Shown here piece after piece: positions 15,501 through 34,804 of a stretch of DNA of 37,575 bases. The DNA is from Folioceros fuciformis (taxonomy: Eukaryota). The position numbers and the translations under genes were made by a program. The stretch covers positions 1-37,575 of the forward strand of contig JBNGIO010005394.1 of NCBI GenBank assembly GCA_049999805.1, given 5' to 3'. The notes beneath the pieces are model-generated. The model saw only the letters and a program-made list of their open reading frames with translations, had not been told where the DNA came from and ran no database searches. Numbering within the stretch: the first letter of the stretch is position 1; the number at the start of each line of letters is the position of its first letter.

Positions 15501-18500
15501 CATGGAGGCCAAGCTCTTGCCTCATAGTCAATGGCCTTTGTTGGTGTTGGCCAAGCTGGGAAGGCTGGGAAAGTTAGGAGGCAAGTGTTGGGAAGGCTAC
15601 CTTCGGGAAGGTGTGGGACAACCCCACGTGGTGGATGGTCCAAAAGATGAGAGAAGTTTACCGGCATCCTGCGGAGGAATGAGGTTGACTCTACCTCAAC
15701 TCCTAGCGAAATAAGGAGCTAGTGAAGGAAGACGCAACAACTCTTTTAGCAACGGACTCCTCCAAGACCACCAATGGGTGGATGATACACGACTTGAAGA
15801 ACCCCTACATCTGAGGAGTGGTGCACTTGACAATCAACTGGCTGTTGGTCACCAAAACGTACCATATACCTGACGGGGTGTTGTTGCTTCTCTACGGACT
15901 AGTGAAAGGCACTCTGGTGGATTGAGGGAAAGTGGTAGCTCATCGGATTTAGTCCGATGTCCACAAGCTTAGGTAGGAGAAACCCCCACCCTCCGGGTTA
16001 GCGCCTTTCCTTTCCACATTCGGGACCATTACAAGTTCCTGACAGATTTGGAAAGGGCGGCCCTCGCTCAATTGCCACCAGCCCGACTACTTCAGCCCTC
16101 GCTCCTCGTAAGGTGGCTGCACTAGTGGCATAGCCCAAGGCTCTCCCAGCCGCACCAGATCCACTGCTCGTGTCAGAACCGTCGGAGGACAGCAGCCAAG
16201 CTGCCCCAACTTCTCCTTCCATGACATCGGCACCCAACTCTCCTCCTCCAAAATGGAAGGTGGAGGCTCCATTAGCTCCGGCACCCCCACCCAAGCGACG
16301 CGCTATCCAGGCGATGTCTACAGTGGGCTAGAGGATTCTCCTTCAGAGCACTCCACCTCCACCGAGTCCGGAGCCAGAAGACTTTCTGACTCTAGCAGTA
16401 GGGGCAACAAGACCACCTAAGACTTAGGAGGAAGCCGATTGGATGGAATTGGTTCGGTTGGCGGCCCAGCTCGATTACAATGAGAAGCATGGAATTGGGC
16501 CGATCGGGATGAACAGCTCCCTTCTCCGCATGGGAGAAAGAAAGGTCGGGGACCTCGTTCTCCCAGTCCGCCACCCACCAGAGTGATTCGACTTCTGTCC
16601 CACAACAGGCCCAAGAGGAAATCGACTAGCAAAAAGCTTTGCCGCAGTCGATAGTCTTGGAGGACCTTATCGAAGGAGGGATCACGGATGTAGAGGCCAT
16701 GAGGAGGGCCATCTGGGCGTCTTTTGGAAGGACTCCCCGACCTCCTAACTATCAGTTCTACATCGGAGCAACTGCAGAAAGAGTGACGCAACCAGCCCAG
16801 GGGATCGTAACTAGTATAGCGGAGGGGCTAGCTTGGTCCTTCGGGCAGGTTGTGGCCAGGGAGGGCAAAAATATTGCCCTCCGAAGAAGGATGACTGAAT
16901 TGGCAACTCAATTGTCTGCTTTAAAGGAGAGGGTTATTGGGCACACCGCGGCACTCCAGGAGGAGTCTGAGAAACATCGGCGGGAGCAAGATCAGTGTTG
17001 ACAGGAGTTCGAGGAACTCAAGGCACAGGTGGCCAATCGGACAGCCGACTTGGAGAAACAACGAGCAGAGGCACAAGAAGAAAATGCCTAAGCTCAGGTA
17101 CTGATGGAGGCCATCCACTCGAAGGAGCGGCAGGCATGGAGAAACGGGAGCTTGACACCTAAGAGACCTACAGATGGCATACAACGGACCGTGATAGATA
17201 CCGGAAGGAGCAAAATCGAGCCCTGGAGGCCAAGAAGGAAGGAGTCCGAAAGTTAGCGAAGTCAGCTCAGCAACTGGAAGAAATGAGGGTCAAGCTTCGG
17301 GTAGTCTAGGTCAAAGAGAAGACCGCCCAACAGGAAATTTGGACTCTTAAGGTGGACCTGGTTTAGATGCGGGAGAGCATGAAGACTCATGGAGATATGT
17401 GGAACGGGAAGCAAAAGGCACTCCTGAACAGGTCCGACGCATTGCGGACCCAGGTTCAGGATTTGGAATTGCAACTCGTGGAATTTGGAGCTCGAGAGGA
17501 ACATCAAGAGGTGGCCCTACTCCGGGCACAGACAAAAGTTGTCGCCAACATCCGACTCCGGGAATCTGTCACAGCCACTTTGGTGGCTCCCGAAGAGCTC
17601 CGGTGTTATGTGGCCTTGGCCATAACATAGAATGCGGACCTTGTAGAGGGTAGGTGGCATCCAAAGTATCGAACACTCTAGAGGATGGTGGTGGACGTTA
17701 TCCAATAATTAGACAACATCCACACCTTCTTCCACGGCGAGGTGCTCCGGGTCCTGAGCGAAACAGCGGAGTCCGTAGCTATTGCAAATGAACTGGACTT
17801 ACCCCTTGATGAGCGGACCGCCCCGATTAGTCCAATGCTCCGGTTACCCAACCCCCTTTCGCCAAATCTAGATTTGCGTAAGGTAGTTTGCTCCCCTCGG
17901 GCTGGTTCTGCCAAGCTACCCATACCCATTGGCGGCGCAGAATCCTCCCCTAGACCCACCTCACTCGTGAGACCCGCGGGTGCTGCTCCTTCGCCGGACC
18001 CCACCCCGCCCACCCCACCCACCCCGCCAACCTCCCATTAAGGCTTCGTGGCATGATCTAGTTGTTACACACTCCTCCCTAGGTAGCTGTAGTCATGTAG
18101 TGCTTAGCTTCCTTTTTGCAGTTATGGCCGCCGTTCAGACTTGAGATTTGGCCCTGTATAAATGTTCTTCAGTTAAATGAAAGAAAGCGCCTCAGGGATT
18201 ACACTCCATTGCTCCACGTGCCTCTCCCTTACGACGTCCTCCATCCCATCATCGCGACTCATCTCTATTCCGTGCAGGTGCCTAGAGGAGCTCTCGGGCA
18301 ATCGCACATCCCTTCCTAGGGCCCCCCTCAAAAGCAACCCAAGTGCACATAGGCAAGAGGCATGCTCTGGAGGTCCTAAGGGGCAAGTGAGAGCAGGCTC
18401 ATAGTGGGGAGTCGACAAAGAGCCACGATGCTCAGGGAGCAAACTCGGCAAATCGGACTACAGCGACCTGATCAGGTAACTCCACCTTAGTACGACGTCC

Positions 18501-18699
18501 ACCCACGCCACAACATAGGGATCCCCTCACGAATCGACACTTCCGCCTTGTCGCCCACGATCCGTTCTGCCCTCCGTCCCACCACACCCACGTTGACGCG
18601 GCCTCCTCGTTCCTTCATTTTCTCTTCGTTCTTTACCGACCGGGCCACCGCTGCGTTTTCTCGCCTAAAAATTTTAAGCAGCCCTCTGGTTGAAAGGCA
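12505..18699. mobile_element. 6.2 kb TG...CA insertion with CATG target-site duplication; probably a Gypsy-derived non-autonomous or deleted element
   Basis: Left junction CATG|TGTCAG, right junction AAGGCA|CATG. Removing the insert plus one CATG restores an in-frame reading (..SKITTCTTVAEGRTSTLSLEE..). No gag/pol or paired LTRs recognised inside. Confidence 0.75.
15770..18041 (+). pseudogene. Decayed accessory ORF of the insertion: transposon-protein-like N-terminal part, Pro/Ser-rich linker, long coiled coil, Pro-rich tail
   Basis: Stop-interrupted frames: LLYGLVKGTLVD*GKVVAHRI (~15885-15950), E/K/R/Q/L-rich helical segments (16639-17630) and a PTPPTPP tail. The architecture resembles extra ORFs of plant Athila/Tat-type Gypsy elements. 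Confidence 0.5.
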
Positions 18700-19479
18700 C
18701 ATGTAGTGATCTTACTTGGACAAAGAAGCTCTACACTAGTCATCGCAAAGTCAGCATGATTAGAGTCTACATTAGCGTCATCATCCTTATCCCTTGAGGA
18801 GGATGCTCTTGCACTAGTCGACTCGATGAAGCCACGTTGCTTGCTCAACTTCTTGTTGATTGCCTTCTTGTCGTTTATGTAAAGAGGTTTCCAAAGGAAA
18901 TTAAAATTTGAAAAGGTTTTTATGAATGTTTGCCAAATTGGTAGTAACAACAAGTCTTTTGGTCTTATACATCAATTGTACTAGGAACTCTGGAATTAAG
19001 CACCCTATGAACGGATAAAGATTGGGATGGGGTCTTATAAGATAGGTTTTTAGTGCGATTTTTGTGCATAGTGCAAAAGAATTGGTGAAAAGGGGACGTG
19101 AAGGAAGACAAGACATTGGTGAAAAAGAGTGGCTAGTGCCTTGTCTCCCCTCACCTCCCCTTTTCACCAAGCTATGAGAGCCCAAGTAGTGAGCGCGCCG
19201 ACCTACTGGTGGCCCATAATTTATTTATTTTTTGCTCTGCAAACGAGGATTTATGTGAACACCTTTAAACCTGAAAACTATTGTTCCCTTCCCATTTGTG
19301 CAACAATTAAAAGATAGCGACAACCTCTCTCATCTCCTTAACGACTTCTAGCATTTTATATATGAGTGAAAAATGGAAGGGCCTAAAGGTTCATCGCATA
19401 GGTCTATTCGTGTTTTGGGTTAAGGTATTCAAATTGTGCATCAACGGGGTGGACTACATAAAAGCAAATGTAGTTCCAT

Positions 19480-19770
19480 TAAAAATTTGAGTTAAGAGTT
19501 GAAGGATTTTTGCTCCAAAGTCACTAGATTTTTAAGTCCTTTCATGAGAAATGGTCATAATGGATAAGCAACATCCCCAATAATGTATGAAGGCACAAAA
19601 ACATCTTTTAGCATGGTAATAAGCTCTCTCAATATGTTCTTTCCGATGAGCAGTTACCATAAACTACTGTTTACTAATATTCCTGCATCATTAGACACTC
19701 CAAGACTCTTGTAACCTCAACTGCCAAAACTGTCTGTTTCAACCATTGCCAACATTATGAAAGAAATGAT
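19480..19770 (-). mobile_element. PIF/Harbinger (HARBI1-like DDE) transposase remnant
   Basis: Minus strand reads IMLAMV...GVSNDAGILVNSSLW and YIIGDVAYPL*PFLMKG...EQKSFNS*L, matching the D..S and GDxxYPL...FN motifs of DDE_Tnp_4. Not called in the ORF track because of stops. Confidence 0.7.
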
Positions 19771-20493
19771 TATATTACTTGATAACATATCATCACTAGA
19801 CATGCTAAAATATTGACTTAAAAAATTATTAAGAGAATATCTTGATAGAAGGCTGAGGAGAAAAAACCCCTAACTTCATCCATAGCCAAAAGCTCAAAAA
19901 TCACAAGCAACCAACAACGAACAAAGAAGAAGGCACAAAGAAATGAAGTGAAAATACCAAGACAGCTGAGCTTGATATTAACCAGGCATTCAGGTTCACC
20001 ATTTAGTTGGCCCATAAACTCAGGTGAAAAACACTCACCCTCCGTCACCCACTATACGTATGGACATGGGCTTGCGGATGGACCGGAGGGCAATTTCAAT
20101 GTAAACACTACTTGAATATGGATGTACGTAGACAGAGTGATATACATACATGCATACATATGTACAGTACATGGAGTCAGCTCAACCTGAGTATGTACAG
20201 TGCATACTGAGCGGTCAGCCCTAATCGATTCGGTTCGAGGCTAGCCTAGGCTACGCTAGGCTGTGCATCGAGCACCGTCGCGGTGGATCTGTTACGCCTA
20301 GCCCAGCCCAGCCCACGGCCACGGCCTACGCCCACGCCCCAGGCCCGGCCTTGCCCCTCCTTCCCCACCACAGCCTTCCTCAAGCCTGTGGGCCGAATGC
20401 AGCCCAGCTGCTGGCCGTCGTCAAGCTGCCGCCAGCCCCAGCTGCTGCTGTCACTGACTGGTGCTGCTGCCAGCCAGTGTACTCTACTGCCTC

Positions 20494-20558
20494 GAGCTGA
20501 GCTGAGCTGAGCTGAGCCCAGCCCAGCCCAGCCGAACCGAGCCGAGCCGAGCCGAGCC
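20494..20558. repeat. Compound pentanucleotide microsatellite (GAGCT)n(CAGCC)n(GAGCC)n upstream of the DRB gene
   Basis: Directly visible. Confidence 0.9.
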
Positions 20559-20769
20559 TTCATCACGGCTCGCTTCCCGTGACATCAAGGGCACGTTCTT
20601 CTCTGCAGGAAGTGAGCATCCTGTTGCTCAGGAGCTCCCGCGCACAGGATACTGCCTAGGCTCTTGTTTGTGTGAGCTAGTTTTGTGGCTAGCTGGTGTA
20701 AGTGTGTCTCGTCGTGGGTGTGAGTGGGAATGCGCTTTTTTTTCCTAAGTGTGGGATGGATGTGCAGGA

Positions 20770-22518
20770 ATGTACAAGAACCAGCTTCAGGAGCTAGCTC
20801 AGAGGAGCTGTTGCAATCTTCCGGCCTATGCTTGCATCCGAGAGGGTCCTGACCATGCCCCACGCTTCAAGGCCACCGTGACCTTCAATGGGGAGACGTT
20901 CGAAAGTCCCACATACTGCAGCACTTTGCGCCAAGCCGAGCATGCTGCTGCCGAAGTGGCCCTCAATACCCTGTCCCGGAGGGGTCCATCGCAATCCTTG
21001 GCTGCAAGAATTCTGGTGGGTGTTGCCCCACCGTCCCACTCGTCTCCTGCCTTTGCTCGCACTTGACTTTCTGGCTGCCAATGTGCAACGGAGGTTGGTG
21101 GTGTTGGTGCTGGGCGCAGGACGAGACGGGGGTTTGCAAAAATCTACTCCAGGAGACTGCTCAACGGGCTGGAGTTTCCCTTCCTGTCTACACCACCACG
21201 CGCTCGGGACCAGGGCATTTGCCTGTGTTCACCTGCACGGTTGAGGTCTCTGGGATGGCATTTTCTGGAGAAGCCGCCAAGACGAAGAAGCAAGCAGAGA
21301 AGAATGCTGCCCTCACTGCGTGGTCTGCTCTCAAGCAGTGTAAGCGCGCCATACTCACCTCCTCCTTCAAGCGTGTAGCTCCCTGTGTTTCTTCGGTGTG
21401 TTGGAATTTGTTTGTTTTATTGTCATGGGTACTGTTTCTTCCTTTCGTGAATCAAAGTTTGCGAGCTCTGTGCGCTCCTTGTTTATGAATACCTTGCAGG
21501 CTCATCTGTAGTTGTGCATTGCTTTCATACACAGATTTAGGTAGGAATGTGATGCGTATTTGATGAAGAAATTGTGAATGTGTCTGTATGTGAATCACAT
21601 GCAGTTGTAAGTCAAGGGCGGTCTTCATCACAAGCTTTGGATACGGAGGTGAGTGAAGAGCAAGAGCAGAACACAATTGCGAGGGCTCTTGCGTATGTCC
21701 ACAGCAAAGAGGAGATGGGCACTTCTACGGGTGTGGAGTGTAGCCCTCTTCAGCAGCAGCTTGCTCCTTGGCAGCATCCGCTAGCCTCAAAGGCTCCACC
21801 TTCGAGGTCAAAAGTGCTGTCTGTTCACGAGGGAGGTGGGCCGGGTGTAACACGGCAGTATCGCAGCAGGGCAGCCTGGTTGCACGGCGATGCAGGACCT
21901 GTGGGCCCCATGTCGGCCACAGGCTCAATGTCGGCCAACAACCAACAGCATTCCAAGAATATGGTAGTGAAGAGTGGGCAGAGCTGCCAGTCGCTTATCA
22001 CCCGGCCTCATCACTCTGTAGTGTGTGGATCGGGCTCCTCACTGGCCAGGGAAGTTGTGGGCGCCAACAGGCATATGGGTCGTATAAATGCCATGGCAGG
22101 TCGCAGCGTGGAAGCTTGTGGAAGCAAAGATATCGGTGAAGGGTCTCTGTCCATGGAAGCACATTTGAAGGATGACGACGAGTGGCTTCAGCCGGACACT
22201 CGTAAATCAAGCAGTATCGGAAGTAGTGGTATGATTGAATCCTCCAATGTGAGCAGACATTCGCTCTGTGGCTCCTACAACCCCATGATGTGGGCTGGTG
22301 GTGGTAGTTCGGACTGGTGGAATTGGCAGACATCCAACCTATCAGCTGCTCACCGTGGGAACATGCATGTTGGCTCTAGTTTAGCTCCACCCGTGTGTGT
22401 GCGGTCCATGGTAACTGTCCATGCCACACCTCCAAGAGTAGTTGCGGATGAAACGGAGAGCATTTCCTGCGAAGGGGAACAAGCTACTAGGCAGGTGCTT
22501 TGTCAGCTGCGGCTTTGA
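20770..22518 (+). CDS. DRB2: Double-stranded RNA-binding protein, DRB2/3/5 clade (two dsRBDs plus C-terminal region), 3 coding exons
   Basis: Exon 20770-21015: MYKNQLQELAQRSC.NLPAYACIREGPDHAPRFKATV...LAARIL. Exon 21120-21339: DETGVCKNLLQETAQR...GPGHLPVFTCTVE..AKTKKQAEKNAA. Exon 21605-22518 ends APPVCVRSMV...LCQLRL. GT-AG introns are in phase. Clade-level call; exact orthologue uncertain. Confidence 0.93.
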
Positions 22519-24079
22519 TGATGCTGGTATGCATGTGACAGATTCATTCGTTGCACTGACCATGAAATCGAGATGGTTTTTGTTCAGTGCTTGCCACCTT
22601 TTTAAAGATTGCTGCCAACAGGTTTGAGCAACTATTTTGAGTTTATACATGTAAACCTAGTGTGCACCTGAAAGTGCGCGCGGCTTTTACTTCTGACCAT
22701 GTAAGTGACTAGTTGATTGTTTTTGTTTCATGGGGTTGTGACAATCTTGGCCATCTCTCCTGAGCTTATTCAGCCAGCCAGCCAGCCGCTTGCGCCTCTC
22801 GAATTCTTAAGCAAGATGAGGGCTCGTGGCAGCAGAATGCATACTCTAGATAGTGTGTATGTAGTTTGTGGGTGTGTGTGTGTGGGGTGTTTTGTCTATG
22901 AGGACACGAGGTTGGGGATAGTGAAGTGTGTGAGACGAGCAAAGCTGGGATGGTAGTTGATGGACCTCAGTTTTTTGTTTCGTGTACAATACATGCACGA
23001 AAGTGGAATGAAAACGTTTCATCTTCTAGGGACTGACATCATCAGTGAATGCGTAGGAGAACTGTCTGTATATGTATGTCCACATGAGCCTCCTGAACCG
23101 GGTGTGGAGTAATGCGCCACAGAAGCAGACTTGATGCTGGGTGGCATATACACCGCGGGAACAGAGGAGTACCTAGTCCAAGGAAGTAGTGACTGAAGAT
23201 ACATAATATGCGTAGGTTGTTAGGGAGGAGGAGGTGTAAGAATATGGAGGACGATTCTTTTGGAGGTAGTAGGCCAGAGGAGGTGGTGCTTCCATGTACT
23301 GGCGGTGGTTCAGCACCGTGCACAACATTCATGTAGGATGCTGCCGTCGCTGGCTCTCTTCCAGCTCTGGCTCTTCGTGTTGCTGGCTCTGCCTGCTTGT
23401 CAGGGTTTGTTGTGCTTCTAGCCGGTCCCTGCATTCTAGCAAGCGGGTGCTGTTTCGATGCGCTCTGCACGATATTGTTGAAACTCCGAGGCACCTTGGA
23501 GCCGCGCACCACTGTCGGGCCCCCAAGCTCGCTACTTTGGGGCCGATGAGACGTAGAGCAAGCACGACTTGGCCGGTGGCACCAAACCTCGTGTGGGGCT
23601 TGGACCGTCGGTTCGGGCGGGAGACGGGCTTTGCGGAAAATTTTGGGTGTAGGTAACGTTTGTGGTTGGAGAGCGAAACGTTTCTACACTCGTCAAGACG
23701 ACGCAGTCCGGATGCGCTCGCGCTAGCCTGAGTGTGGCCTGCAGACACGACTGCCTGGGCTTCTCCGCCTACAGTATACAGTCAGCCTCTGGTCCATCGA
23801 TAGGGCAGGACGCAGCACGACGATGGTAATGACTCTTCATGTATGCCTGGACATTGCAATCTGGAAAGGAATTATAATCTGTTGTCTGAACAGAGAGTTC
23901 CCTTCTGTTTGCTGTCGACGTCGGTCGCAATCTTTGAAGTGTGGCGGTGAGCGGCAGAGGAAGAGGAGAATGGATGCTCCATGAAGGAAGCCGATAGGTT
24001 ATTTGGTACAAGTGTGGTTGGAGATGGTGGTATCATCAACATCAGGAAGGGAGCAGGTAGCAGTTAGACGAAGGGGGAA

Positions 24080-26335
24080 ATGCTCCTGGCAGAGCAGCTG
24101 CCGTTGCTGTTGCGGCTGCAGCCATGCTCCCCTTCGCCGTCAGCACCTGCAGGATTGGCCGTCAAGACAACAACAATGGCCTGCAGTAGCAACAGCAGCA
24201 GGGAACGGCAGCACGTGCTGTGGCACCACTTCTTTGCCGACCCCAGTCAGTGGTGGGACAACAGGGCGGAGAAGAAGGGTCCGAGCCATCCGGACTTCAA
24301 GCACAAGGGCTCCAAGGAGGCCTTATGGCTGGACAATGCCAGTAAGCCCGAATGGGTGGATTTGCAGCTGGCCGTGTGGGATGCCCGCATGAGACTGACC
24401 GCAGAGGGTGTAGAGAGGTTGAGACAACTTTGTGAGCAGGGCCGCCCGTTGCAGGAGGCTGTGGAAGCGCTGGAGCTCCTGGTGCAGCAGGGGAGTTGCT
24501 CTTGCGCTCTCACCACCAATTCCCTCTTCTACCCAGTGCTTAAGATGTGCAGGCGTGGAACAGGTGCGGAGTTTGATGAGCAGGATCTGGGCTTGGCCAG
24601 GCGAGTCCACGCTCTTGCGGTGGCCACCGGCTTTCACGCGGACGCGTTTCTGGCCAACCACATCATCTCCATGTATGCGTCACATGGGGCTGTGGGCGAG
24701 GCGACGAGCGTCTTCACCGAGGTCACCGAGCCCAATGTCTACATGTGGGCATCCATCATCTGGGCGCATGCGCGACACGGGCAGCCCCAGCGTGCCATCC
24801 AGCTGTATCGGGACATGCGGCAAACTGGACTAGTGAAGCCGGACTCGCGTACCTTTGTGGGTGTTCTCACGGCTTGTGCCTCTGCGCAGGACCTGTGGGC
24901 CGGCAAGGAGGTGCATGTCCATATTCAGCAGCAGCAGCAGAATCAGCAGGAGCAGGAGCTGGATGACTTCGTCTCCTCCAGCTTGGTGCATATGTATGCC
25001 AAATGCGGCAGCCTGGAGGATGCTCGCAAGGTGTTCGACCAGCTGTCCACTAAAAATGTGGTGACATGGAATGCCATGATCGCAGGGTATGCCAGAGTAG
25101 GGATGGGCCGGCAGGCGCTGGACCTGTATGCAGGGATGCAGATGCAGGGCATGACTAGGGCAGCAGCAGCAGCTGCAGTAGGTGATCAGGTGACACTGGC
25201 CTGCCTCCTCCGAGCATGCGCCACCGTGGGAGCTGTTCAGCATGGGAAGCAGCTTCACTCACAGATCCGCGAGACAGGCCTGGAAGGAGACGCCGTGGTG
25301 GGCACTTCCCTGATCGACATGTATTGCAAGTGCGGGAGCTTGGAGGATGCTCGAAGGGTCTTTGATGCACTGCCCAACAGAGATGTGGTGGCATGGAATG
25401 CCATGCTGAACGGGTACGCTGAGCATGGGCTGGCGGGCATGGCCTTGGAGTGCTTCGGGCAACTGCAAATGCAGGTGGAGCAAGGAGGCAGCATCCGCCC
25501 GGATGCAGCAACCTTCGTTTCTGTCCTGGCTGCCTGCGGTCATGCTGGTCTTGTGCAGCAGGGCCAGGTCTACTTCCGGATGATGGTGGAGGAGCACAGC
25601 ATCCAGCCCACTGATCTCCACTATAACTGCATGGTCCATCTCCTGGCCCGGTCTGGCCTGCTGGAGGAGGCGGAAAGCATGTTGCTCACCACGTCCCTTG
25701 GCGACCCCGTGGTGGGCTGGACTGCATTGCTCACCGCTTGCAGAAGCTTTGGGGATGTGGAGCGAGGAAGGCGATGCTTCGAGCGTCTTGTGGAACGGGA
25801 GGCTCACGATGCCAGCTGTTACGTGCTGTTAGGCAACATCTACGCCAATGCAGGCAGGTGGGAGGATGTGGGCAGAATTGAGAGGCAGAGGAAGGAATCT
25901 GGAGCCAGGAAGTTAGCTGCCACGGCCTGCATCGAGGTGGAGGAAGAGATACACGAGTTTACTGTCGGGGACGTGAGGTTCAGCAGGCCCAACATCATCT
26001 TCAAGCTCAAAAGCGTGAATGCGAGGCTGACGGAGGAAGGAGGACACGTTCCCCACACGGAATTAGTACTGAAGGCTGTGTCTGAGCGGGAGAAGAAGGA
26101 TGCCCTGTGCGGGCATGCCGAGAAGCTGGCCTTAGCCTACGGTCTGCTGAACACTCCGGAGGGCACTCCTCTGCTCGTCACGAAGAATCTGCGCATGTGC
26201 AGCGACTGCCACAGCTCCACCCAGATCATGTCACGACTGGAGAGGCGGGAGATTATTGTGAGAGATGCTCATCGGGTGCACCGTTTCCTGGATGGATCTT
26301 GTTCCTGCGACGACCGCCGGATCCTCATTCCTTGA
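24080..26335 (+). CDS. Intronless PLS-class PPR protein: likely transit peptide - PDF (OSB-type) motif - 11 PPR motifs - E1/E2 - DYW:KP-type domain; candidate U-to-C organellar editing factor
   Basis: 751 aa intact ORF. PDF motif at aa ~47-97 (WWDNR..HPDFKHK..ALWL..PEWV). PPR array L-S-P-L-S-P-L-S-P2-L2-S2. DYW domain: KLAATACIEV, HAEKLA, NLRMCSDCH, HRFLDGSCSCDDRR. Confidence 0.95.
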   Translation: MLLAEQLPLLLRLQPCSPSPSAPAGLAVKTTTMACSSNSSRERQHVLWHHFFADPSQWWDNRAEKKGPSHPDFKHKGSKEALWLDNASKPEWVDLQLAVWDARMRLTAEGVERLRQLCEQGRPLQEAVEALELLVQQGSCSCALTTNSLFYPVLKMCRRGTGAEFDEQDLGLARRVHALAVATGFHADAFLANHIISMYASHGAVGEATSVFTEVTEPNVYMWASIIWAHARHGQPQRAIQLYRDMRQTGLVKPDSRTFVGVLTACASAQDLWAGKEVHVHIQQQQQNQQEQELDDFVSSSLVHMYAKCGSLEDARKVFDQLSTKNVVTWNAMIAGYARVGMGRQALDLYAGMQMQGMTRAAAAAAVGDQVTLACLLRACATVGAVQHGKQLHSQIRETGLEGDAVVGTSLIDMYCKCGSLEDARRVFDALPNRDVVAWNAMLNGYAEHGLAGMALECFGQLQMQVEQGGSIRPDAATFVSVLAACGHAGLVQQGQVYFRMMVEEHSIQPTDLHYNCMVHLLARSGLLEEAESMLLTTSLGDPVVGWTALLTACRSFGDVERGRRCFERLVEREAHDASCYVLLGNIYANAGRWEDVGRIERQRKESGARKLAATACIEVEEEIHEFTVGDVRFSRPNIIFKLKSVNARLTEEGGHVPHTELVLKAVSEREKKDALCGHAEKLALAYGLLNTPEGTPLLVTKNLRMCSDCHSSTQIMSRLERREIIVRDAHRVHRFLDGSCSCDDRRILIP

Positions 26336-27089
26336 AAGATGGGGATGCAGGGCAGTGCAATGCAACGCAAGGGCCTCCATATACCGTACTACACGCAGAA
26401 AGCTGGGACCGTGTCGTTTACACAACCCTACTCACGCGGGGTCGAGAAGACGACAGAACACGAACTGTACAATCATCTCACAATTCTTTTTCAACAACTA
26501 CAACAACTTCTTCATGCTGAGAAAGAAACGCCTCACGAGGAGAGTACTGTATCGGGAACTCGTGGAGATGGAAGCTAATCAAAGTCATTCCCAAGTACTG
26601 TACATAATAAACGAGGAAAACCCTTGTGTAGAGAATCTGGGCCTGGGCTATCAAAGGGACTGTTCTGTTCACAGGAGCCGTAGGAGGGGTGCTTAAGGTC
26701 TGCCAACTGCAAAACTGGTCCCCAGTAGCGAATAGGTGACCAACTGGGAATTAGATTCCAAGACATTTAAATTCGAAAATATTGTATGTAGTATACTTTT
26801 TCTTCCGTTCGATCGTCCATGGCTCTGGCTCTGGCTCTGTGCAAGGTCGAACATCGACAGTCGCTTGTCACTCACCCTGAGGCATCCTATGACACCCCAC
26901 CCAAAGAATACTGTACGCACCGCCAACTTGGGAACGGTACACCGCACAGCGACCAAAGAAAGTACATGCTACCTTCAGCATCGGAGCCCCCTATGCGTGC
27001 AGTGCAGGGATGTAATAATGCACTATACATACCTGGGCATCCTTGCTAGTCTGTTGTTAGACTCACGTTCTAACAGCGGTATCTGAATC

Positions 27090-29652
27090 ATGGCCACAGT
27101 ATGGCTATCGATGTGTGCATAGGGATTGTACTAGGAGCTCCCGCTCACCTCATTGTAGGGAGCCAACCCCCGGCAACCAAGGCCTTCAGTTGCAGCAGTC
27201 CAAGGAGCTCGGCATTCCCGCTCCCCAAAACGACGCGTGTGGGTGAGAACGGGTCTCCCAGCGATGCCGATCGTTACTAGGAGCACGAGCGCTTGTGGCA
27301 ACAAGTTTTTCTGGACCCTACCCTGTGGTGGGACAACAGACGACATGAGAAGAGCTCTCGCTCTCCTGACTTCCGGCGTATGGGGTCTGGCGAGGGGCTG
27401 TGGTTAGACAACATGTTCAACCAGCTTGGGTGGATGACCACCTGCTTTCCTCCGGGCTGCAGATAGTTCAAGGTGCTTCTCCTTGCAAGCCGAGACCTCG
27501 GGATATCCTTGAACCTGGTGGGCGTGGATGATCTGTAGTGGGCTCCATGTGCAGCAGTGTAAGGAACTCAACACCTTGCACTCCCGGGAAAATGTGTGGG
27601 TGGGGACGGGTTTTAGGGTTCAAGCCAGCTTGGGTTGACAGCACCTTGTCTCCTTGGATGCGCAGATGGGTCCCTCTCCTTCCAGGTCGACCTCCCCGGG
27701 TAAGCCTGAACTTGGCAGGCGTGAAGGATCGGACATGGATGTCGTCACGGCTGGAACGGTGAGCCTGTTATGTTATCAAGGAAAGCTTTCTGACGCCGTT
27801 GGATCCCTGGAATCTCTGGCGCAAACACACACTCTGTTATTTCTCGGACTCTGCTTTACACTGTGCTGAAACTGCGTTACAGCTAATAAGGATTTGGTTT
27901 TGGGGCGAGGGGTCCATGATCTCGCCATCAAACTGGGATACGAGTCGAGTGCGTACTTGGGGAACCATATCTTGCGCATGTATGCATCTGGAGGTAGGCT
28001 AGAGGAGGCCATGGGTGTGCTCATCAGAGTGAGGAAACCGGACGCCTTCATGTGCTCTTCCATCATCTTCGCGTACGCGAAGCATGGGAAACCTAGTGGG
28101 GCTGTAAAACTGTACCATGAGATGTGTAGGTCGGGAGTGAAGGCGGATGCTCACGTCTTTGTAGCTGCCCTTCAAGCTTGTGCATTGGCCGCCGACTCGG
28201 AATCTGGCAGAAAAGTACACGGTGATGTAGTGCACAGTGGCATTCCTACTAATCTATTTGTTGGCAATTGCCTGGTGGACATGTATGCAAAATGTGGTGA
28301 AATGAAAGATGCACGCCAGGTTTTTGACAGCATGGCCATAAAGGATGTGGTGACATGGACGGTGCTGATCGCCGGGTATGCACAGCAAGGGCTCAGCCGA
28401 GGGGCGCTAGTTGTGTATGGACTGATGGAGGAGGCGGGCCTCATTTTGCCTGACCGTGTTACCTTCGCTTGCCTTCTGAAGTGTGCAAGCACCTGTGCCT
28501 TACACACGGGCGTGCAACTGCACTCACAGATAGTCCAAAGGGGCCTGCTGGAAGACGTTATGGTGGGCAACTGCCTGGTGGACATGCACGCAAAATGTGG
28601 CAAACTAGAATATGTTCGCCAGGTATTTGACAGTATGGACACCAAGGATGTGGTGAGTTGGACCGCCCTCATTGCTGGGTATGCACAGCAAGGACTTGGC
28701 CAAGAGGCGCTTGCTATGTATGAACAAATGGAGGAGGCGGGTGGCGTGGACCGCCCTGATACCCGGATATGGTACTTGTGATGAAGGTCTCAAGGCACTA
28801 GCCTGTTTTGAGGAAATGTTAGGTGCTGGTGTTCAGCCTAATGATGCTACTTTTACTTGCCTTCTTGTAGCATGCAGTCATCGGGGACTTGTCCAAGAGG
28901 GTCGCAAGTACTTTTATTCCATGGCGGACCAGCATGGTATCAAACCTACTATTCAGCATTACACCTGCATGATCGATCTTCTTGGGCGTGCTGGCCATTT
29001 AGACGACGCAGAGAAGATGCTGTCATCCCTCGAGGGCGAAAGGAATGTTGTAGGCTTGATGTGTTTGTTGAACGCCTGCAAGAGTTACGGGGATACAGAG
29101 AGGGCAATGTGGTGTTTTGAAAGCATTGTCAGCCTGGACCGTCAGAAGGCTCCCGCCTATGTTCTCATGGCCAATGCGTATGCAGATGCAGGTAGGTGGG
29201 CCGATGTAGACAAGATTGAAACACTAAGGAAGGCAGCAGGAGCTAACAAGGAACCTGCAGTGGCTACCATTGAGGTGAAGAAGGAAGTACACAGATTTCT
29301 GGTGGGAGAAAGGAGAGAGGATATTGCACTAAAGGTGGAGAGCACGAGTGCCCGTTTGGAGAAGGAAGGAGGTCTTGTACCTCACACAAAATTGGTGTTG
29401 AAGCCACTGTGTGCGAGGGGTAAAGAAGAAATGTTTTGTGGTCATGCTGAGAAACTAGCTCTGGCCTTCGGTCTCTTGAACATTCCGAGTGGGACGCCTC
29501 TGGTGGTAACTAAGAACCTACTCGTGTACAGTGACTGCCACAGTTCCACGGAGATAATGTCGAGGCTTGAGAAGAGGGACTTTGCTGTAAGGGATAGGTT
29601 CCGTGTTCATCGATTCACAGCTGGTTGTTGCAGTTGTAACTGCCAACCGTGA
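27090..29652 (+). pseudogene. Disrupted paralogous PDF-PPR-DYW:KP gene
   Basis: Several TAG stops in the 5' part. PDF motif LWQQVFLDPTLWWDNR..SPDFRR..GLWLD at ~27293-27415. Frameshifts near 27420, 27640, 27830-27880 and 28740. PPR array in ORFs 27894-28781 and 28672-29652. DYW domain KEPAVATIEV, HAEKLA, CxxC changed to YSDC, ends CSCNCQP. Start position is tentative. Confidence 0.85.
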
Positions 29653-30166
29653 GGAGACAGGATGAGTTTCGCCAGCGTGCATACCGGTGACCGGGTTTCC
29701 GGAAGCGTGTACTTCTGGGGATCAATTTTTTCACACGTGCCTCTTTACTATTGATCAGTAACAATTGCGACAGATGCCTTCCGCGATACTTTGTCGCAAG
29801 GCTTACGGTTCGGAGTTATAGGGTTTAAATCCTAAGCCCTAAAACGTGGGCATTGGTTTCATCCCGTGGCCTTAGACTCAGTTGCAGTCAACAGGGCGTG
29901 TGTCATTCTCGTGCTTGTGTGTCATACTTGGTGGATACATGTCATCGTAGGATACTTGCGTGTGAGATCATATTTGGATACTTATGAGATCAAATATGTA
30001 AGTATTTGAGCTTTGCCACAGCCGCTATGTGTACCTACCTTACTAGCTTTGGCTTTGGCTAATGGCAATACTTTGTGGCCTCATGTATCACATGTAAGTG
30101 GCCTCATGTCATCCGCCATTCCATCGCCATGTGACTAGGGTGCGACCCACCCGTGTAGGTTCCATG

Positions 30167-30277
30167 TTGATCATCGCCCTCACTCTCACGTTGCTCATCA
30201 CCCTCGCTCTTGCATTGCTCATCGCCCTCATTCTCACATTGTTCATCGCCCTCGCTCTCAAGTTGCTCATCACCCTT
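30167..30277. repeat. 24-bp tandem repeat, about 4.5 copies
   Basis: tcatc(g/a)ccct recurs at 30171, 30195, 30219, 30243 and 30267. It explains the repetitive ORFs 30098-30283 and 30104-30352. Confidence 0.9.
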
Positions 30278-30409
30278 ACTTAGATCTTCGAGCTGCCCTC
30301 CTACCGACCTTCCAATGCACTGTTGAGGGGCTGGCCAAGGGCTTGGTGCCAATTACTCTAAGTATTGTGGCCCATCACCATGCCATAAAGCTCACTCTAA
30401 AAGCAATTT

Positions 30410-31405
30410 TTGTCGGCCTTGGAGAAAGCTATGGCCATTACAAGTTTGCTCAATAACACATCAAAGAAGGAAGATTTGTCTATTGAGAAGGAAACTCTGT
30501 CTTATTTATATATGCTTACTCAAGCATCTCGATTTGTGAATGTGAAAGGCAAATGTCATTGCCCTTTGTACTCATGGTTATCTACACTTTCTAACATGCA
30601 TCTACATGAGTTCATACAATTGCTACATACTGCACATCCAGGTTTCAAGTTGGTCTCAAGACGCTATGCAACATCCTTAGTAACAACCAAGTTTTCTTTA
30701 ATAGCTCTAATTGTTCTCAGAGTCAGGTTGCTTGGCAATTAGGAGTTACTTCATGTAGATTTAGAGCTGCAAAAAATGGAGCAAACATTGGGAAAACATG
30801 TCAACTATTTCATATTGGCCATGGCACCATTGTGAAAGGGACCCAACTTGTGATCATTATTTTGCTTCATATGCGCCATGAGTGGATGAAGTGGCTAGAT
30901 GAGAGTAGACGATATGAGATTAGTGAAGTGATACGCCTAAAGGGTTTTGAGGGATGTGTTGGCTTCATTAATAGAACAACTTTGTCATGATCACAAAAGT
31001 GTGGCATTTGTAGTAAGCAATATTTCTTCATTATCACAAAAGTGTGGCATTGGTGGTGAGCAATATTTTGTCATTATCACAAAAGTGTGGCGTTGGCGGT
31101 GAGCAATATTTTAAAAGGAAACGGATGTATGCCCTTAACATCTCACAAACATCAACGACCTCAAACTTTCTTCATTTAGGATTGGAACACTATTTTCTAT
31201 GTATTCTATGAACCTGCAAGTTGCGTGTGATGTCGACAAAAGAATCACCTCTCTACATGTTGGTTGTCCTAGCTCTAATCATGCTACATTTGTGTTTCAA
31301 AGAATGAGTATTTATAAAGATCCAACAACACATTTCTCAGCAGGGAAATACCTTATAGGAGATTCCACGTATCTACTATCACATTTTTGTGTCCCATTAT
31401 GTTGA
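30410..31405 (+). mobile_element. PIF/Harbinger (HARBI1-like) transposase remnant
   Basis: FHIGHGTI, GFEGCVGFINRT (degenerate GxIDGT), YFKRK, YSMNLQVACD..LHVGCPSSNHA, YLIGDSTYLL. Stops and frameshifts present; left boundary uncertain. Confidence 0.85.
30982..31110. repeat. 43-bp triplication inside the Harbinger remnant
   Basis: tcacaaaagtgtggc... occurs at 30991, 31034 and 31077. Confidence 0.9.
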
Positions 31406-31428
31406 GGTCCTTTCTCTAAGGAGAATCT

Positions 31429-31724
31429 TGTTAGAAAAAGTAGGAAATCAAGGATCAACTCTATTCAGGGGCCTAGGCGCCGATAGCGTAATTTAAGCAG
31501 TCCAAAAAGCAAATCTAGCAAGTATCCCGTCTAATAATGCGTAAAACGGGCGTAGGTGAGAGCATACAGAACTTTGATAATTGGAAATGAATTAACAATC
31601 TCAATGACAAAAACATTTAAATACTATCCATGTGTCCATCGACCAAACAACCCTAAGTCCATGTAACCTGAATATAATCAACTATGCGTTAGGTTTAACT
31701 TCTAAGCTAACACCCCCTCTTAAA
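31429..31724 (-). mobile_element. 3' LTR (31429-31712, 284 bp) with polypurine tract of a minus-strand Copia-like element
   Basis: Inverted termini TGTTAG...CTAACA. The minus strand reads tttaagaggggg|tgttag (PPT immediately before the LTR). Confidence 0.75.
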
Positions 31725-32498
31725 CTAACCACTGTTAATTTAAAACTCAAACCCTAAGATGAAGGACTTCTTACGGGGGATGTGACAAACAGGCATCACG
31801 AGGAATAGTCTCTCGCTCATGCACGCTTGAAAGTAATCCGGTGGTTGGAGTTGACGATCCAGATTCTGCTCTGCAATCAAGGCTGCGACTACAAGAATGG
31901 AGCTCCCCCTTGCTGTGCTCATCATCAAATCTCAGCTTGTGCTCTTCTTCTTCACGCATCTGTAATTTTTTATTCTCTGATTGAGCATGAGAAGGAGCGG
32001 CATGGAAGTTCGAATTCCTTCTGAAGGGAGGCAGAAGAGGAGTGGAATTGTTGACAACCATCCTGCTAACTCGCAGTCTTCATCAGCAACGAGAACGGAG
32101 GCGTCCTCCTCATCAGAGGTTATGCCTCTGAGTAAAGGGGAAGCAATCAAAGGCTGGGAATGGGACAACAACACGTGGTCGGCCAGCATGTGCGCCTGGG
32201 GAACTACCATGTGGAACTGAATGTGTCCTTGGTGATAAGCAAAGTCAAGGACATGAATACCCACATCTCCGAACCTCCAACTCGTGAGCAAACTGAGGAA
32301 AGGAGACAGGGTCTTGTCAATGAGCTGGAGAGCACTATCAGAATGTTGAACAAGCTCAAGGGGGTGGACTTTTACGACTAAAACAAGTATACAGATGATT
32401 AGGTATGTCCCTCACGCTTCATCCATCTGACCCTATGTTTTTTTTTTTTTAGCAGAGGGGCACATGTTTCCACCACCCTCCATCCAGATGAGTGACTG

Positions 32499-34804
32499 TC
32501 ACTCAAAATAGGCAGAGTAGTCCCTCAGTCCCATGCCCTCCATGTGATAATAATGTTTGTATTTGGGCAACCCTTTTGTGAGGATGTCGGTAGTGTTTTC
32601 ATCTGTCTGTATGTATTCCAATTTAAGAACACCTTTGTGAACCACATCTCGTATGTAGTGGTGTTGCACTTCAATATGTTTTGTACGAGCATGAAATTTT
32701 GAGCTCTCTACTAACTCAAGGGCTACGATGTTATCACAGAGCACGAGAGTGGGCTTCTCCTGCGGCTGTCCCAAATCTTGGAGGAAGCTACGTTCCCACT
32801 CAGCCTCTTTTGCTGCTTCAGTCAAAGATTTATACTTCAGAGGAACTGAGAGCAACATATGCTTCCTTTTTATAGCTCCATGTAACCGCTACTGAGCCCA
32901 GTACATAGCAATATGTGGAAAGACTCCTTTGTGCATCGGAATCCGAGGCCCAGTCAGCATCTGTGAAGCCTCTCAAAATAAGTTGCCTTTGCCCTGTGCT
33001 CTTGTACATAAGTCCGCATTTATGCATGCCTCTGAGATAACTAAATATCCTTTTGACAGCTACCTAGTGTACCTTAGCAGGATTTTCCAGAAACTGCAAA
33101 ACTATACTAACAGCATATTGTATGTCAGGTCGAGTCCAGTTCGCAACAAAAATCAGAGACCCAACAGCATGTCGGTAAGGTATGTTCTACATGTCCAACT
33201 TTTCAGCTTGTGACTGTGGGCACTGGTACTTAGTCAATTTCGTGCCAGCAGCATAGGGAGTGGCAGCTGGCCTGGCCTCATCAAGGTGGAACTTTCTGAG
33301 TATCTCGATTATGTACTTGTACTGGTGGATAAACAGTAGCTCTTCTTCCCTTACACAAAGCAATTGGATTCCCAAACATAATTTCAGCTCCCCTATGTCT
33401 TTCATGTCGAATATGTTGCTGAGTTTGTCCTTCACACTTGCTAATAGCTTTTGGTCGTTTGTGGCAAATATAACATTTTCCACATAAAGTGCTAGGATGA
33501 CGATTGATGCTCCTTAAGTGAGCTTGTACGCATTGCTGTCGGCTGCATTTTGGACGAAGTCAATACTAAGCAGGTACAAGTGCATTGTAATGTACCAAAC
33601 ACGCACGCTTTGTTTCAGGCCGTATATGCACTTCAAAAGCTTTAACACTTTGTTAGGATGCTGCTTGTCTTCGTAGGCTTCAGGCTGCAACATATACAAC
33701 TCCTTTTCAAGGGTACCATACAAAAAGGCAGTGCAAACATCCATCTGTTGCAGGTCAAGGTCAAACTCAGTGGCATAAGCAAGCAGAATTCTAATCGACT
33801 GTGTACAAACAATAGGCGAGAAGGTCTCTTGATAGTCAAGGCCTTCCACTTAGGTAAACCCACGAGCCACGAGCCTTGCTTTGTATCTGGCCACTCGTCC
33901 ATGTGCATTGAACTTGATTTTAAAAACCCACTTACAGTTGATCGCCTTTCTTCTAGGTGGGAGGTCTGCAAGTACCCATGTCTCATTTTTTATGAGAGAT
34001 TCGTACTCATCCTCCACTGCAGCCTTCCATTGTTCACTCTATGGACCATTGAAGGCCTACTGTAAAGTGGTAGGCTCCTCTGGAACTTCAGGGCTAGCAG
34101 TAGCCAAGGCAGCAGCTTTAGCAAAAGAGGTTTTCCGAAAATCAATGGACTGGTAACGGGGTTCTGCCCATTAGTCAGGAGGTGGCCTGTGACGTGTAGA
34201 GCGTCTAAGTACAGGCTCTTGTTCATGTGGCTCGTCAGCAGTGGCTATGCTTTCCAGAGCATGATGTCCTACAACCTCCCCCTCATCGTCTGGAATGGGA
34301 GCAGCATCCCCCTCGTAGACTGGAGGATAATCATTTTCCAAAACATTATGTAGATCATCCTGCAGGTTCATATTGTTTTCATGATCAGTATCGGCAACAT
34401 TAGGCACATCAAGTGCCACTAGTGGAGGGTTTGCCAACACAACATCACCTCCATGTCCGTCAGCAAGATCGTCAAATGTTTCGGGATCAGCAGGATCCAT
34501 ATCATCAAGTGGGTAAGTGGCTGGGACTCCCTCTATTTCATCTGTTTCCAACAGATCGGAGTATCCTCCTTCAGCAGTTTGTGATAAATTTGGAGATGGC
34601 TGTGTGGCAGGGGCACTGGGCTCAAGAAAGGTGATGCTCCGGGCGAGAAGCATGGCACCAGTCTTAGGATTGTAAAGTTTGTAGGCTTTGGTTCTTTCAC
34701 TATAACCTACAAAAAGTAAGCCCTTTGCTCGAGGATCCAATTTCCTTCGTTTCTCAACAGGTATGTAACCAAAAGCCCGTGCTCCAAAAACTCGCAGATG
34801 TAAC
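32499..34804 (-). mobile_element. Decayed Ty1/Copia pol (integrase C-terminal region - RT - RNase H)
   Basis: HLRVFGARAF..KLDPRA..FVGYS, LRRSTR, GLDYQETFSP, QMDVCTAFLYG, IYGLKQS, YVEN (YVDD mutated), GFTDADWA, KHIEVQHHYIRD, DILTK. Many stops and frameshifts. Confidence 0.95.

Follow-up and report, generated by a model that had tools for sequence, protein, structure and literature searches.

The gene at positions 24080-26335 (forward strand) of the window, the whole stretch of 37,575 nucleotides of Folioceros fuciformis contig JBNGIO010005394.1 (assembly GCA_049999805.1) that was analysed in this study, encodes a PPR protein in which an OSB-type PDF motif is fused in frame ahead of the repeat array. 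We infer the ligand and the role of this motif from its sequence and position: with a probability of roughly 0.6, the PDF would be a sequence-independent, single-strand-binding cap adjoining the PPR array.

Organization of the focal gene

The coding sequence, delimited by the ORF listing, its translation, Pfam and the X1 contigs described below, runs free of interruption over 751 amino acids plus the stop codon, in the order presequence, PDF, PPR array, E motif and DYW domain (KP-like). Two in-frame methionines, M1 at 24080 and M33 (ATG) at 24176, are candidate starts, neither of them fixed, and aa 1-43 (24080-24208), which hold 7 S, 5 P, 5 A, 8 L, 3 R, 1 K, 2 E and 0 D, would on this composition form an organelle-targeting presequence. 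The PDF motif follows as a single copy at aa 44-102 (24209-24385), placed by a local PDF HMM, phmmer, alignments and AF2. The first PPR similarity appears at aa 106, and the PLS-type array extends from there to about aa 557 (24395-25750; Pfam PPR, PPR_2, PPR_1, PPR_3 and PPR_long). It is succeeded by the E motif (E1/E2 region) at aa 558-613 (25751-25918; PF20431, E 9.2e-16, profile positions 2-57 of 63) and by a KP-like DYW deaminase domain at aa 611-751 (25910-26332; PF14432 at aa 655-745, E 1.7e-34). The in-frame fusion of the PDF with PLS, E and DYW parts, which an earlier note on this DNA had claimed, was borne out by the Pfam matches to PPR, E and DYW within one ORF. Moreover, the PPR and DYW parts showed no departure from RNA editing factors in Pfam, and the domain order is that of a PLS-class editing factor: the PPR array leads into an E motif, after which comes a DYW domain containing HxE and CxxC. 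The gene product is probably a PPR editing factor of the PLS class and organelle type, with putative targeting to an organelle. The Pfam scan found no significant family in aa 1-107, and the SSB domain PF00436 was absent from the 751-residue protein. Judged by its domains, the protein is not an OSB: it has no SSB-like OB fold, and PPR repeats come after the PDF.

The contigs agreed with a fused reading frame. In X1, a spliced-contig run whose RNA label is only guessed, three contigs (23680-25085, 25061-26209 and 26185-26756) were identical to the window, and the first of them spans the PDF-PPR junction, unspliced there. Two GT..AG introns (21340-21604 and 27559-27665) were skipped in X1 and kept in X2, a DNA run; X1 gave no cover at 17000-20203 and 30350-33000, both of which X2 covers. 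A contig of X4, which is from a related organism, was colinear with the window over 23972-25085. The wrong joining of an OSB gene to a PPR gene was rejected for the window on the single ORF, the single contig and the missing SSB domain; joining of gene models is likely for some database rows, such as a Kingdonia PPR + SSB protein and a Coptis kinesin.

Identity and fold of the PDF motif

The earlier note had recognized an OSB-type PDF motif in this ORF, and the recognition was correct. The peptide that it quoted lies at aa 47-93, beginning with LWHHFF (24218) and finishing with PEWV (24358), and the local PDF HMM aligned aa 44-102 at 85 bits (positions 2-60 of 61), with the P-D-F signature inside this match at aa 71-73. 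When aa 41-107 were searched with phmmer against 1.84 billion representatives, 728 proteins matched at E<=1e-3, 242 of which reached E<=1e-10; the named proteins among the 728 included the OSB2-like P0155 (E 1.6e-17), OSB3 P0177 (E 2.5e-11) and a Marchantia SSB protein, and liverwort SSB-domain proteins were also found. BLASTP matched both repeats of P0155 (E 9e-16 and 2e-14) and the Marchantia SSB protein at E 2e-23 with 55% identity. Six of the ten non-PPR matches scanned with Pfam carried SSB N-terminal of the motifs, two of them above Pfam's cut-off. Furthermore, an invariant core (F20, W26, D28, R30, P39, D40, F41, W51 and W60) was common to the mixed and the PPR-only alignments, and the focal motif has every column that is invariant in alignments A1 and A2. 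By these comparisons, aa 44-102 and the OSB PDF motif were established as truly homologous, at a level far beyond chance; the E-values, together with the confident fold and the invariant core, led us to reject a chance similarity or a piece of presequence. A separate region search with aa 34-140 against proteins of similar length returned two matches, and the window's own protein was not among them. The PDF motif is described in review passages as about 50 residues with a conserved Pro-Asp-Phe signature, and the binding of ssDNA is attributed to the OSB PDF motif in passages of reviews that cite Zaegel 2006.

In the AF2 models, the PDF formed a confident small domain (pLDDT 84.1), and a 300-residue model (pLDDT 89.6, pTM 0.79) placed helix pairs directly after it, with a single helix (residues 59-87) bridging the PDF and the array in the predicted geometry. 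Foldseek with an 85-residue model gave no match in the PDB at E<=1e-3 (best E 3.3), and VIA-align against 48,161 chains reached a best Z of 4.7, with generic helical hairpins throughout. On these models the PDF cannot be assigned a known fold, and fold novelty does not follow from failed matches. A PDB sequence search with profile A1 returned bacterial-type SSB chains only (E 0.012-0.79), which were discounted because the similarity lay in OB-fold columns that OSB rows bring into the profile, outside the PDF columns. Phage gp49-like clusters of the ESM Atlas reached a best score of 0.82, under the level for a lead, and were discarded.

The DYW domain

The focal domain was aligned with nine PG-type DYW domains and with that of the neighbouring paralog. 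Its HxE and CxxC are intact, with HAE at aa 679-681 (HAEK at aa 679-682), K702, and CSDC at aa 707-710 (CSDCH at aa 707-711). The KP subclass takes its name from a Lys-Pro pair that stands in the N-terminal box instead of Pro-Gly. Passages of PMC11845758 and PMC9478123 characterize the subclass by Ala or Cys in place of Ser after the catalytic His, by the absence of xHP and by an unconserved DYW triplet. In the focal protein, alanine instead of serine follows the catalytic histidine, PG and SW are absent from the aligned domain, HP is missing at the aligned place, and the tail after C-S-C is a triplet other than DYW. The N-terminal box reads K-L-A-A-T-A, as against K-E-P-A-V-A in the neighbouring paralog; the lysine is present, and the eponymous KP proline is replaced by alanine. 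The earlier assignment to DYW:KP stood with respect to HAE, the missing PG and xHP and the non-DYW tail, and of the Lys-Pro pair the lysine alone is kept. The domain is here termed KP-like, and its U-to-C activity is putative; a passage of PMC11845758 describes natural KP proteins as still of unknown activity.

A tandem paralog

A tandem paralog was detected by HMM, tblastn and Pfam at 27149-29640 on the same strand (+), with a PDF at 27284-27412, PPR, E and a KP-like DYW. Its PDF scored 45.9 bits in the HMM (positions 2-44), the focal protein aligned to it in tblastn colinearly across three frames with 36, 43 and 51% identity, and PPR, E and DYW were all detected by Pfam. The frame of the PDF closes at a stop codon (27464-27466) ahead of the GT..AG intron at 27559-27665, and in the DYW domain Tyr replaces the first Cys of CxxC. 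The paralog is apparently disrupted, a decayed copy with the layout of the focal gene.

PDF+PPR proteins as a class

An N-terminal PDF had been taken in the earlier note to be atypical of PLS factors, a view that, outside seed plants, the 121 other PDF+PPR proteins retrieved do not support. They came from lycophyte, fern, moss and liverwort, and the named carriers were Diphasiastrum, seven Sphagnum species, Ceratodon, Calypogeia, Adiantum, Pteridium and Riccia. PPR proteins made up 100 of the 106 long PDF proteins. Each of 135 proteins had all of its PDFs on the N-terminal side of the array, the copy number in the class ranged from one to three (two or three copies in 34 of the 135), and the median gap between PDF and array was 8 residues; among the 121 other proteins, the first PDF started at a median of residue 61. 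A DYW domain was present in 49 of these 121 and absent in 72. All 49 were of the PG/HSE/DYW type, with HSE in 44, HAE in none and a DYW-like end triplet in every one, and no further KP-like PDF fusion was found among these 49 retrieved proteins; a specific co-occurrence of the PDF with DYW:KP was thus not supported by the retrieved set.

One carrier, P0141, named Riccia sorocarpa, showed PPR families in Pfam without an E or DYW family. Riccia presumably falls in the liverwort group reported as lacking RNA editing, and a carrier without E and DYW from such a plant argues against an editing-specific role of the PDF. The abstract of PMC5295000 speaks of complex thalloid liverworts only.

With 210 motifs placed on a tree, the PPR label required 8 changes, as against 61.7 for shuffled labels (0 of 500 shuffles as low), and the five rows nearest to the focal motif were four PPR-linked motifs and one 162-aa fragment; this tree is built on 61 columns, stars mark only 7 of the 207 inner branches, and the labels are confounded with taxonomy. 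The focal gene is probably a member of an old and widespread PDF+PPR class of non-seed land plants, and its PDF, as the tree and the distribution suggest, a domain that was not recently captured. The source names of the PDF+PPR proteins were 'hypothetical protein', 'unnamed protein product' or a generic PPR or DYW-domain name, and never the PDF motif; the missing Pfam model for the motif may be a reason why the class went unnoticed.

Discussion

PPR arrays bind RNA with the N-terminus facing the 5' side, which would place the PDF just 5' of the sequence-specific footprint. We propose a sequence-independent cap that would hold single-stranded nucleic acid where the PPR footprint has its 5' end and that may add affinity or on-rate; as its ligand, the RNA strand bound by the array is more likely than ssDNA. 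According to a passage of one review, OSB1 and OSB2 prefer ssDNA over dsDNA or RNA, which favours ssDNA as the PDF ligand and speaks against an RNA cap.

The earlier note had offered as candidate roles a tether to nucleoids or R-loops, an RNA chaperone and an activity directed to ssDNA. The alternative that takes up ssDNA binding, and which we hold to be unlikely, is that the PDF binds it as in OSBs and tethers the PPR protein to nucleoids, at transcription bubbles, R-loops or replication intermediates, so as to allow co-transcriptional processing or editing. The invariant core is equal in OSB-linked and PPR-linked motifs, and PPR carriers without E or DYW, such as the Riccia protein P0141, fit a general localisation role. 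However, one would expect a tether to hang on a flexible linker, and the PDF instead abuts the array, with a median gap of 8 residues and a continuous helix in the predicted structure.

Solenoid proteins often need capping helices, and it is conceivable that the PDF in its PPR context binds no nucleic acid and serves either as a structural N-terminal cap shielding the first PPR helices or as a surface for protein-protein contact or oligomerisation. The tight junction with the first PPR helix, the confident modelled attachment and the need of solenoids for capping all agree with a structural cap, and a passage of one review, in which OSB2 is a tetramer, agrees with an interaction surface. Nevertheless, we consider this quite improbable: the PPR-linked copies retain in full the invariant aromatic and basic residues (W, F, R, K, H) of the OSB motifs, for which simple capping would have no use, and the two or three copies in 34 of 135 proteins fit additive binding better. 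Finally, it is highly improbable that the PDF is a KP-specific addition that aids the U-to-C reaction in a MORF-less lineage or redirects the enzyme to ssDNA, for although both PDF+PPR genes of the window are KP-like and the failure to find another such fusion may mean that the combination is lineage-specific, KP-like domains occurred in 0 of the 49 other PDF+PPR+DYW proteins, 72 of the 121 proteins were without DYW, and the PPR and DYW parts are in Pfam as in RNA editing factors.

The single-strand-binding cap can be extended, tentatively and with the odds against the whole of it, to a wider picture: an ancient PDF+PPR class that spans the non-seed land plants and is rare in seed plants or has been lost from them, in which an OSB-type domain rigidly fused at the 5' end of the solenoid would be a built-in helper, either an RNA affinity clamp or a nucleoid-ssDNA anchor, that does what MORF and similar helpers do in trans in seed plants and is combined here with a U-to-C (KP-type) domain. 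In published passages, moss PPR56, which is not established as a PDF carrier, edits in E. coli without its N-terminus except 14 residues, and an N-terminal module would thus not be generally needed for catalysis. Published passages also present PPR editing factors as being engineered into programmable C-to-U and U-to-C RNA editors; if the PDF is a natural cis booster of PPR-RNA binding, it would offer a 55-residue part usable in designer editors. The testing of moss, fern and hornwort factors would then change as well, the N-terminus of PPR56 having been removed before the assay. Moreover, the fusion brings together OSB, part of the machinery of organelle DNA maintenance, and PPR, part of that of RNA processing, and it defines a large protein class that bears generic names at most and whose motif is without a Pfam model.

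Comparison with known systems

OSB proteins resemble the focal protein in a PDF of roughly 55 residues with an invariant W/F/D/R/P-D-F/W core, present in one or several copies. Their order is different, with an SSB-like OB fold at the N-terminus and the PDF copies at the C-terminus, whereas in the focal protein the PDF is N-terminal and PPR, E and DYW follow. The other PDF+PPR proteins also carry the PDF directly N-terminal of the array, and the focal motif groups with theirs; however, those with a DYW domain are of PG/HSE/DYW type (49/49), in contrast to the HAE, the missing PG/SW and HP and the non-DYW tail of the focal protein.

PPR-DYW:KP proteins, to which published passages assign a candidate role in U-to-C editing in hornworts, lycophytes and ferns and which include the designer proteins KP1-KP6, share with the focal protein the Ala after the catalytic His, the lack of a PG box and of xHP, a non-DYW C-terminus, and an intact HxE and CxxC. 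They have the eponymous proline where the focal protein has alanine; the designer proteins begin at the PLS array, and an N-terminal PDF goes unmentioned in the passages of the KP-protein accounts. OSB is not mentioned in the passages of the main text of PMC13386178, and no account of a PDF motif on a PPR protein was found in the literature searched, with Zaegel 2006, Gutmann 2020, Gerke 2020 and supplementary domain tables outside its scope. There is a likeness in concept to MORF/RIP, ORRM (RRM) and OZ proteins and to the RRM-PPR fusions described in passages of PMC13386178, in which a non-specific module or helper is likewise joined with a sequence-specific PPR array; these helpers are of other folds and families, whereas the helper of the focal protein is fused in cis at its N-terminus.

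The N-terminal segment of the focal protein and its homologs

In this study, the fusion of an OSB-type PDF motif to a PPR array, which the earlier note had read as an unusual feature of one Folioceros fuciformis gene, was found to be real and widespread, and apparently it had not been described before. The focal gene is a single uninterrupted ORF of 751 aa at window 24080..26335 on the forward strand (ORF listing and translation), in which Pfam placed PPR families over the central part, followed by an E motif (aa 558-613, E 9.2e-16) and a DYW deaminase domain (aa 655-745, E 1.7e-34), and found no significant family in aa 1-107. The peptide quoted in the earlier note is present from aa 47 (window 24218) to aa 93 (window 24358), and its placing of PDF motif, PPR array, E motif and DYW domain in one ORF was confirmed. 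Ser, Pro, Ala and Leu abound in residues 1-43, which include four basic and two acidic residues, a composition compatible with an organelle presequence. A further in-frame ATG, a possible alternative start, lies at 24176; the contig of X1, a run guessed to be RNA, begins at least 400 nt 5' of the first in-frame ATG, and this leader (23680-24079) carries upstream ATGs, one of which opens an overlapping ORF of 122 aa (from 24024, in a different frame). Two PPR repeats of the focal protein (window ~24930-25260) contain a Gln-rich and an Ala run, low-complexity inserts of a kind unusual within PPR helices.

When aa 41-107 were searched with phmmer against 1.84 billion representative proteins, 728 matched at E<=1e-3; the number fell to 242 at E<=1e-10 and to 21 at E<=1e-30. 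Many of the 728 had 2 to 13 matched stretches. Six of ten non-PPR matches scanned with Pfam carried an SSB family N-terminal of the motifs (two of the six above Pfam's cut-off), three had no family and one was a kinesin; the six thus have the same order as OSB proteins, for which reviews give an SSB domain followed by the PDF motif. The named matches of a word-indexed search included a Triticum dicoccoides OSB2-like protein (E 1.6e-17), OSB3 of Aegilops (E 2.5e-11) and SSB-domain proteins of Marchantia and Riccia. With BLASTP, both repeats of the OSB2-like protein aligned to the focal segment (9e-16 and 2e-14), as did the lone motif at the C-terminal end of the Marchantia SSB-domain protein (55% identity, 2e-23). 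Moreover, W16, F20, W26, D28, R30, P39, D40, F41, W51, P58 and W60 (numbering of the 85-residue query) were invariant across the focal and 40 single-motif proteins. By sequence homology, then, the segment is identified as a PDF motif, as had been proposed. Pfam held no model matching the motif in the scan of the focal protein, which may be why it goes unannotated in database records. In angiosperm records the motif also turns up in odd settings (P0002, P0072, P0038, P0215, P0225): a Kingdonia protein of 1160 aa with 13 PDF repeats, a kinesin of Coptis, a protein of Striga under the name ICR2, a Cuscuta protein with Ty3-capsid and SSB domains and a Kingdonia protein with PPR and SSB domains; some of these are probably merged gene models.

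Probable transcript evidence for the fusion

Four sequencing runs were compared over window 17000-33000. The RNA label of X1 is the tool's guess only; its contigs skip 21340-21604 and 27559-27665, both GT..AG stretches that the DNA run X2 contains, and X1 was therefore treated as a transcript assembly. Its contigs over the focal gene (23680-25085, 25061-26209 and 26185-26756) are all identical to the window, and the first passes unspliced through the presequence, the PDF motif and the first PPR repeats. The breaks at 25061-25085, around which copies of a PPR repeat lie (24971-25149), and at 26185-26209 are present in the DNA run too and therefore look like assembly breaks. X2 may itself be the source of the window and does not count as independent support. 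Furthermore, a contig of X4, a run of a related organism, is colinear with 23972-25085, from which it differs by 77 letters and 15 gaps. Upstream lies a spliced gene (20209-23246, forward strand, GT..AG intron 21340-21604), whose 267-aa ORF at 21715-22518 has no Pfam family; in the related organism, one X4 contig continues from the counterpart of this gene into the PPR gene.

Distribution and descent of PDF+PPR proteins

Among the 150 phmmer representatives listed, 13 showed PPR similarity, and Pfam found PPR families in all ten of these that were scanned. A profile search returned 106 PDF proteins of 722-2060 aa, including 100 PPR proteins and 48 proteins with a DYW domain. Over all searches, 121 PDF+PPR proteins besides the focal one were retrieved (25 isoforms fetched as cluster members are omitted from this count). 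By source name they come from the lycophyte Diphasiastrum complanatum, with dozens of loci, the mosses Ceratodon purpureus and seven Sphagnum species, the liverworts Calypogeia fissa and Riccia sorocarpa, and the ferns Adiantum capillus-veneris and Pteridium aquilinum. The view that typical PLS factors have no such module was not borne out outside seed plants, given these 121 other proteins. Of the PPR rows retrieved, a single one is from a seed plant, Kingdonia; it bears an SSB domain as well and may stem from the merging of gene models. Where a source names these public proteins, the name is 'hypothetical protein', 'unnamed protein product' or a generic PPR or DYW-domain name. No description of a PDF motif on a PPR protein was found in the literature searched, whose scope left out supplements, Zaegel 2006 and Gutmann 2020, and the word OSB is absent from the main text of a kingdom-wide survey, published in 2026, of domain fusions in editing factors (PMC13386178).

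Each of 135 PDF+PPR proteins, a set that takes in isoforms and the focal protein, has all its PDF copies N-terminal of the PPR array, with one copy in 101, two in 29 and three in 5. In the 121 other proteins the first motif starts at a median residue of 61, and the gap from the last motif to the first PPR-similar residue has quartiles of 5 and 21 and a median of 8 residues; the PDF envelope of the focal protein extends to aa 103, and its array begins at aa 106.

A quick ML tree of 61 columns was built from the best near-full-length motif per protein, with 252 unique motifs reduced to 210 by dropping rows more than 85% identical; its support is weak, with 7 of 207 inner branches starred. The PPR label, which is confounded with taxonomy, required 8 changes, compared with an average of 61.7 for shuffled labels; none of 500 shuffles was as low. 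The five rows nearest to the focal motif are the PPR-linked P0007, P0076, P0129 and P0085 and a 162-aa fragment, P0074. The motif of the Riccia SSB-domain protein has OSB-type rows as six of its eight nearest, and that of the Riccia PPR protein has only PPR-linked rows (8/8). The few label changes and this sorting by type tentatively suggest one old inherited fusion and not repeated capture.

Relation to the DYW:KP type

The marks of the KP type, as given in PMC11845758 and PMC9478123, are a KP pair replacing the PG box, an Ala or Cys that follows the catalytic His, a C-terminus that varies and is not DYW, and the usual absence of xHP. The focal domain has HAE, lacks PG, SW and HP and has a tail other than DYW, all of which agree with the proposed DYW:KP assignment; the assignment falls short at the eponymous proline, which is missing from the focal box (K-L-A-A-T-A versus K-E-P-A-V-A in the neighbouring paralog). 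Specificity of the fusion for DYW:KP, for which the earlier note had asked a test, was not supported by the proteins retrieved: none of the 49 other PDF+PPR+DYW proteins has HAE, 44 have HSE and five fell outside the search pattern, PGxSW or PGxTW is present in 36, and the C-terminal triplet is DYW-like in every one of the 49 (DYW, DFW, DSW, GYW or NYW). Among the proteins retrieved, the PDF motif is thus a feature that many PPR proteins share and not one that marks U-to-C enzymes; save for its KP-like catalytic domain, the focal gene is typical of the class.

A second PDF motif (27284-27412; 45.9 bits, positions 2-44 of the PDF HMM) belongs to a tandem paralog at 27149-29640 on the forward strand, with the same layout of PDF, PPR, E and KP-like DYW. 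The focal protein as tblastn query aligned to it colinearly in three different frames (36, 43 and 51% identity). A stop at 27464-27466 in the PDF frame, upstream of the GT..AG intron removed in X1 (27559-27665), a change of frame near 28700 in the PPR part and a Tyr for the first Cys of CxxC suggest decay, and X1 contigs over 26867-27968 cover at least its 5' end; the paralog is probably a transcribed pseudogene. The PPR pair lies between transposon remnants, since ORFs 2594-3202 (integrase core domain, rve, E 4.3e-09) and 35967-36620 (copia-type gag, E 6.5e-19), both on the forward strand, are retroelement fragments. Four overlapping copies of a 48-nt unit with 24-nt spacing occupy 30167-30286, which translates to Leu/Ile/Thr/Ala-rich repeat ORFs in several frames.

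Predicted structure and proposed role

The AF2 model of aa 33-117, built on an alignment of the focal segment with PDF proteins, confidently predicted a small domain (mean pLDDT 84.1; 41 of 85 residues at 90 or more) of a helix, three short strands and a long helix, the strands carrying the W-W-D-N-R and P-D-F-K-H-K segments. In a longer model, which covers aa 33-332 and draws on 64 other PDF+PPR proteins (pLDDT 89.6, pTM 0.79), a single helix (residues 59-87) continues from the PDF motif into the array, with junction blocks scoring 85-91, a predicted geometry that agrees more with a rigid cap than with a bead on a tether.

When PPR arrays bind RNA, their N-terminal repeats face the 5' end and the DYW domain is placed at the base to be edited. 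A PDF motif rigidly joined to the N-terminus would therefore be positioned just 5' of the PPR footprint, where it might clamp that RNA strand without sequence specificity, a reading to which we give a probability of about 0.4. The ssDNA binding that reviews citing Zaegel 2006 report for OSB proteins would instead favour a tether to ssDNA in nucleoids, which we consider rather less probable than the clamp. A purely structural or protein-binding cap could make use of the same rigid junction and seems unlikely. A KP-specific or DNA-directed role, which the KP-like domains of the focal gene and its paralog might recall, is very improbable, HAE being absent from the 49 other DYW-bearing proteins.

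The motif also occurs on PPR proteins in which no DYW domain was detected, which speaks for a general role in PPR action rather than for one in catalysis. One such protein, P0141 of Riccia sorocarpa, has neither E nor DYW family in Pfam, and we take Riccia to belong to the liverwort group said to lack RNA editing, which the abstract of PMC5295000 names as complex thalloid liverworts. The homology, fusion, position and recurrence of the motif are shown by these data. Moss PPR56 is able to edit in E. coli from a construct that lacks the native N-terminus, so that an N-terminal module such as the PDF motif, where present, would be at most a helper.
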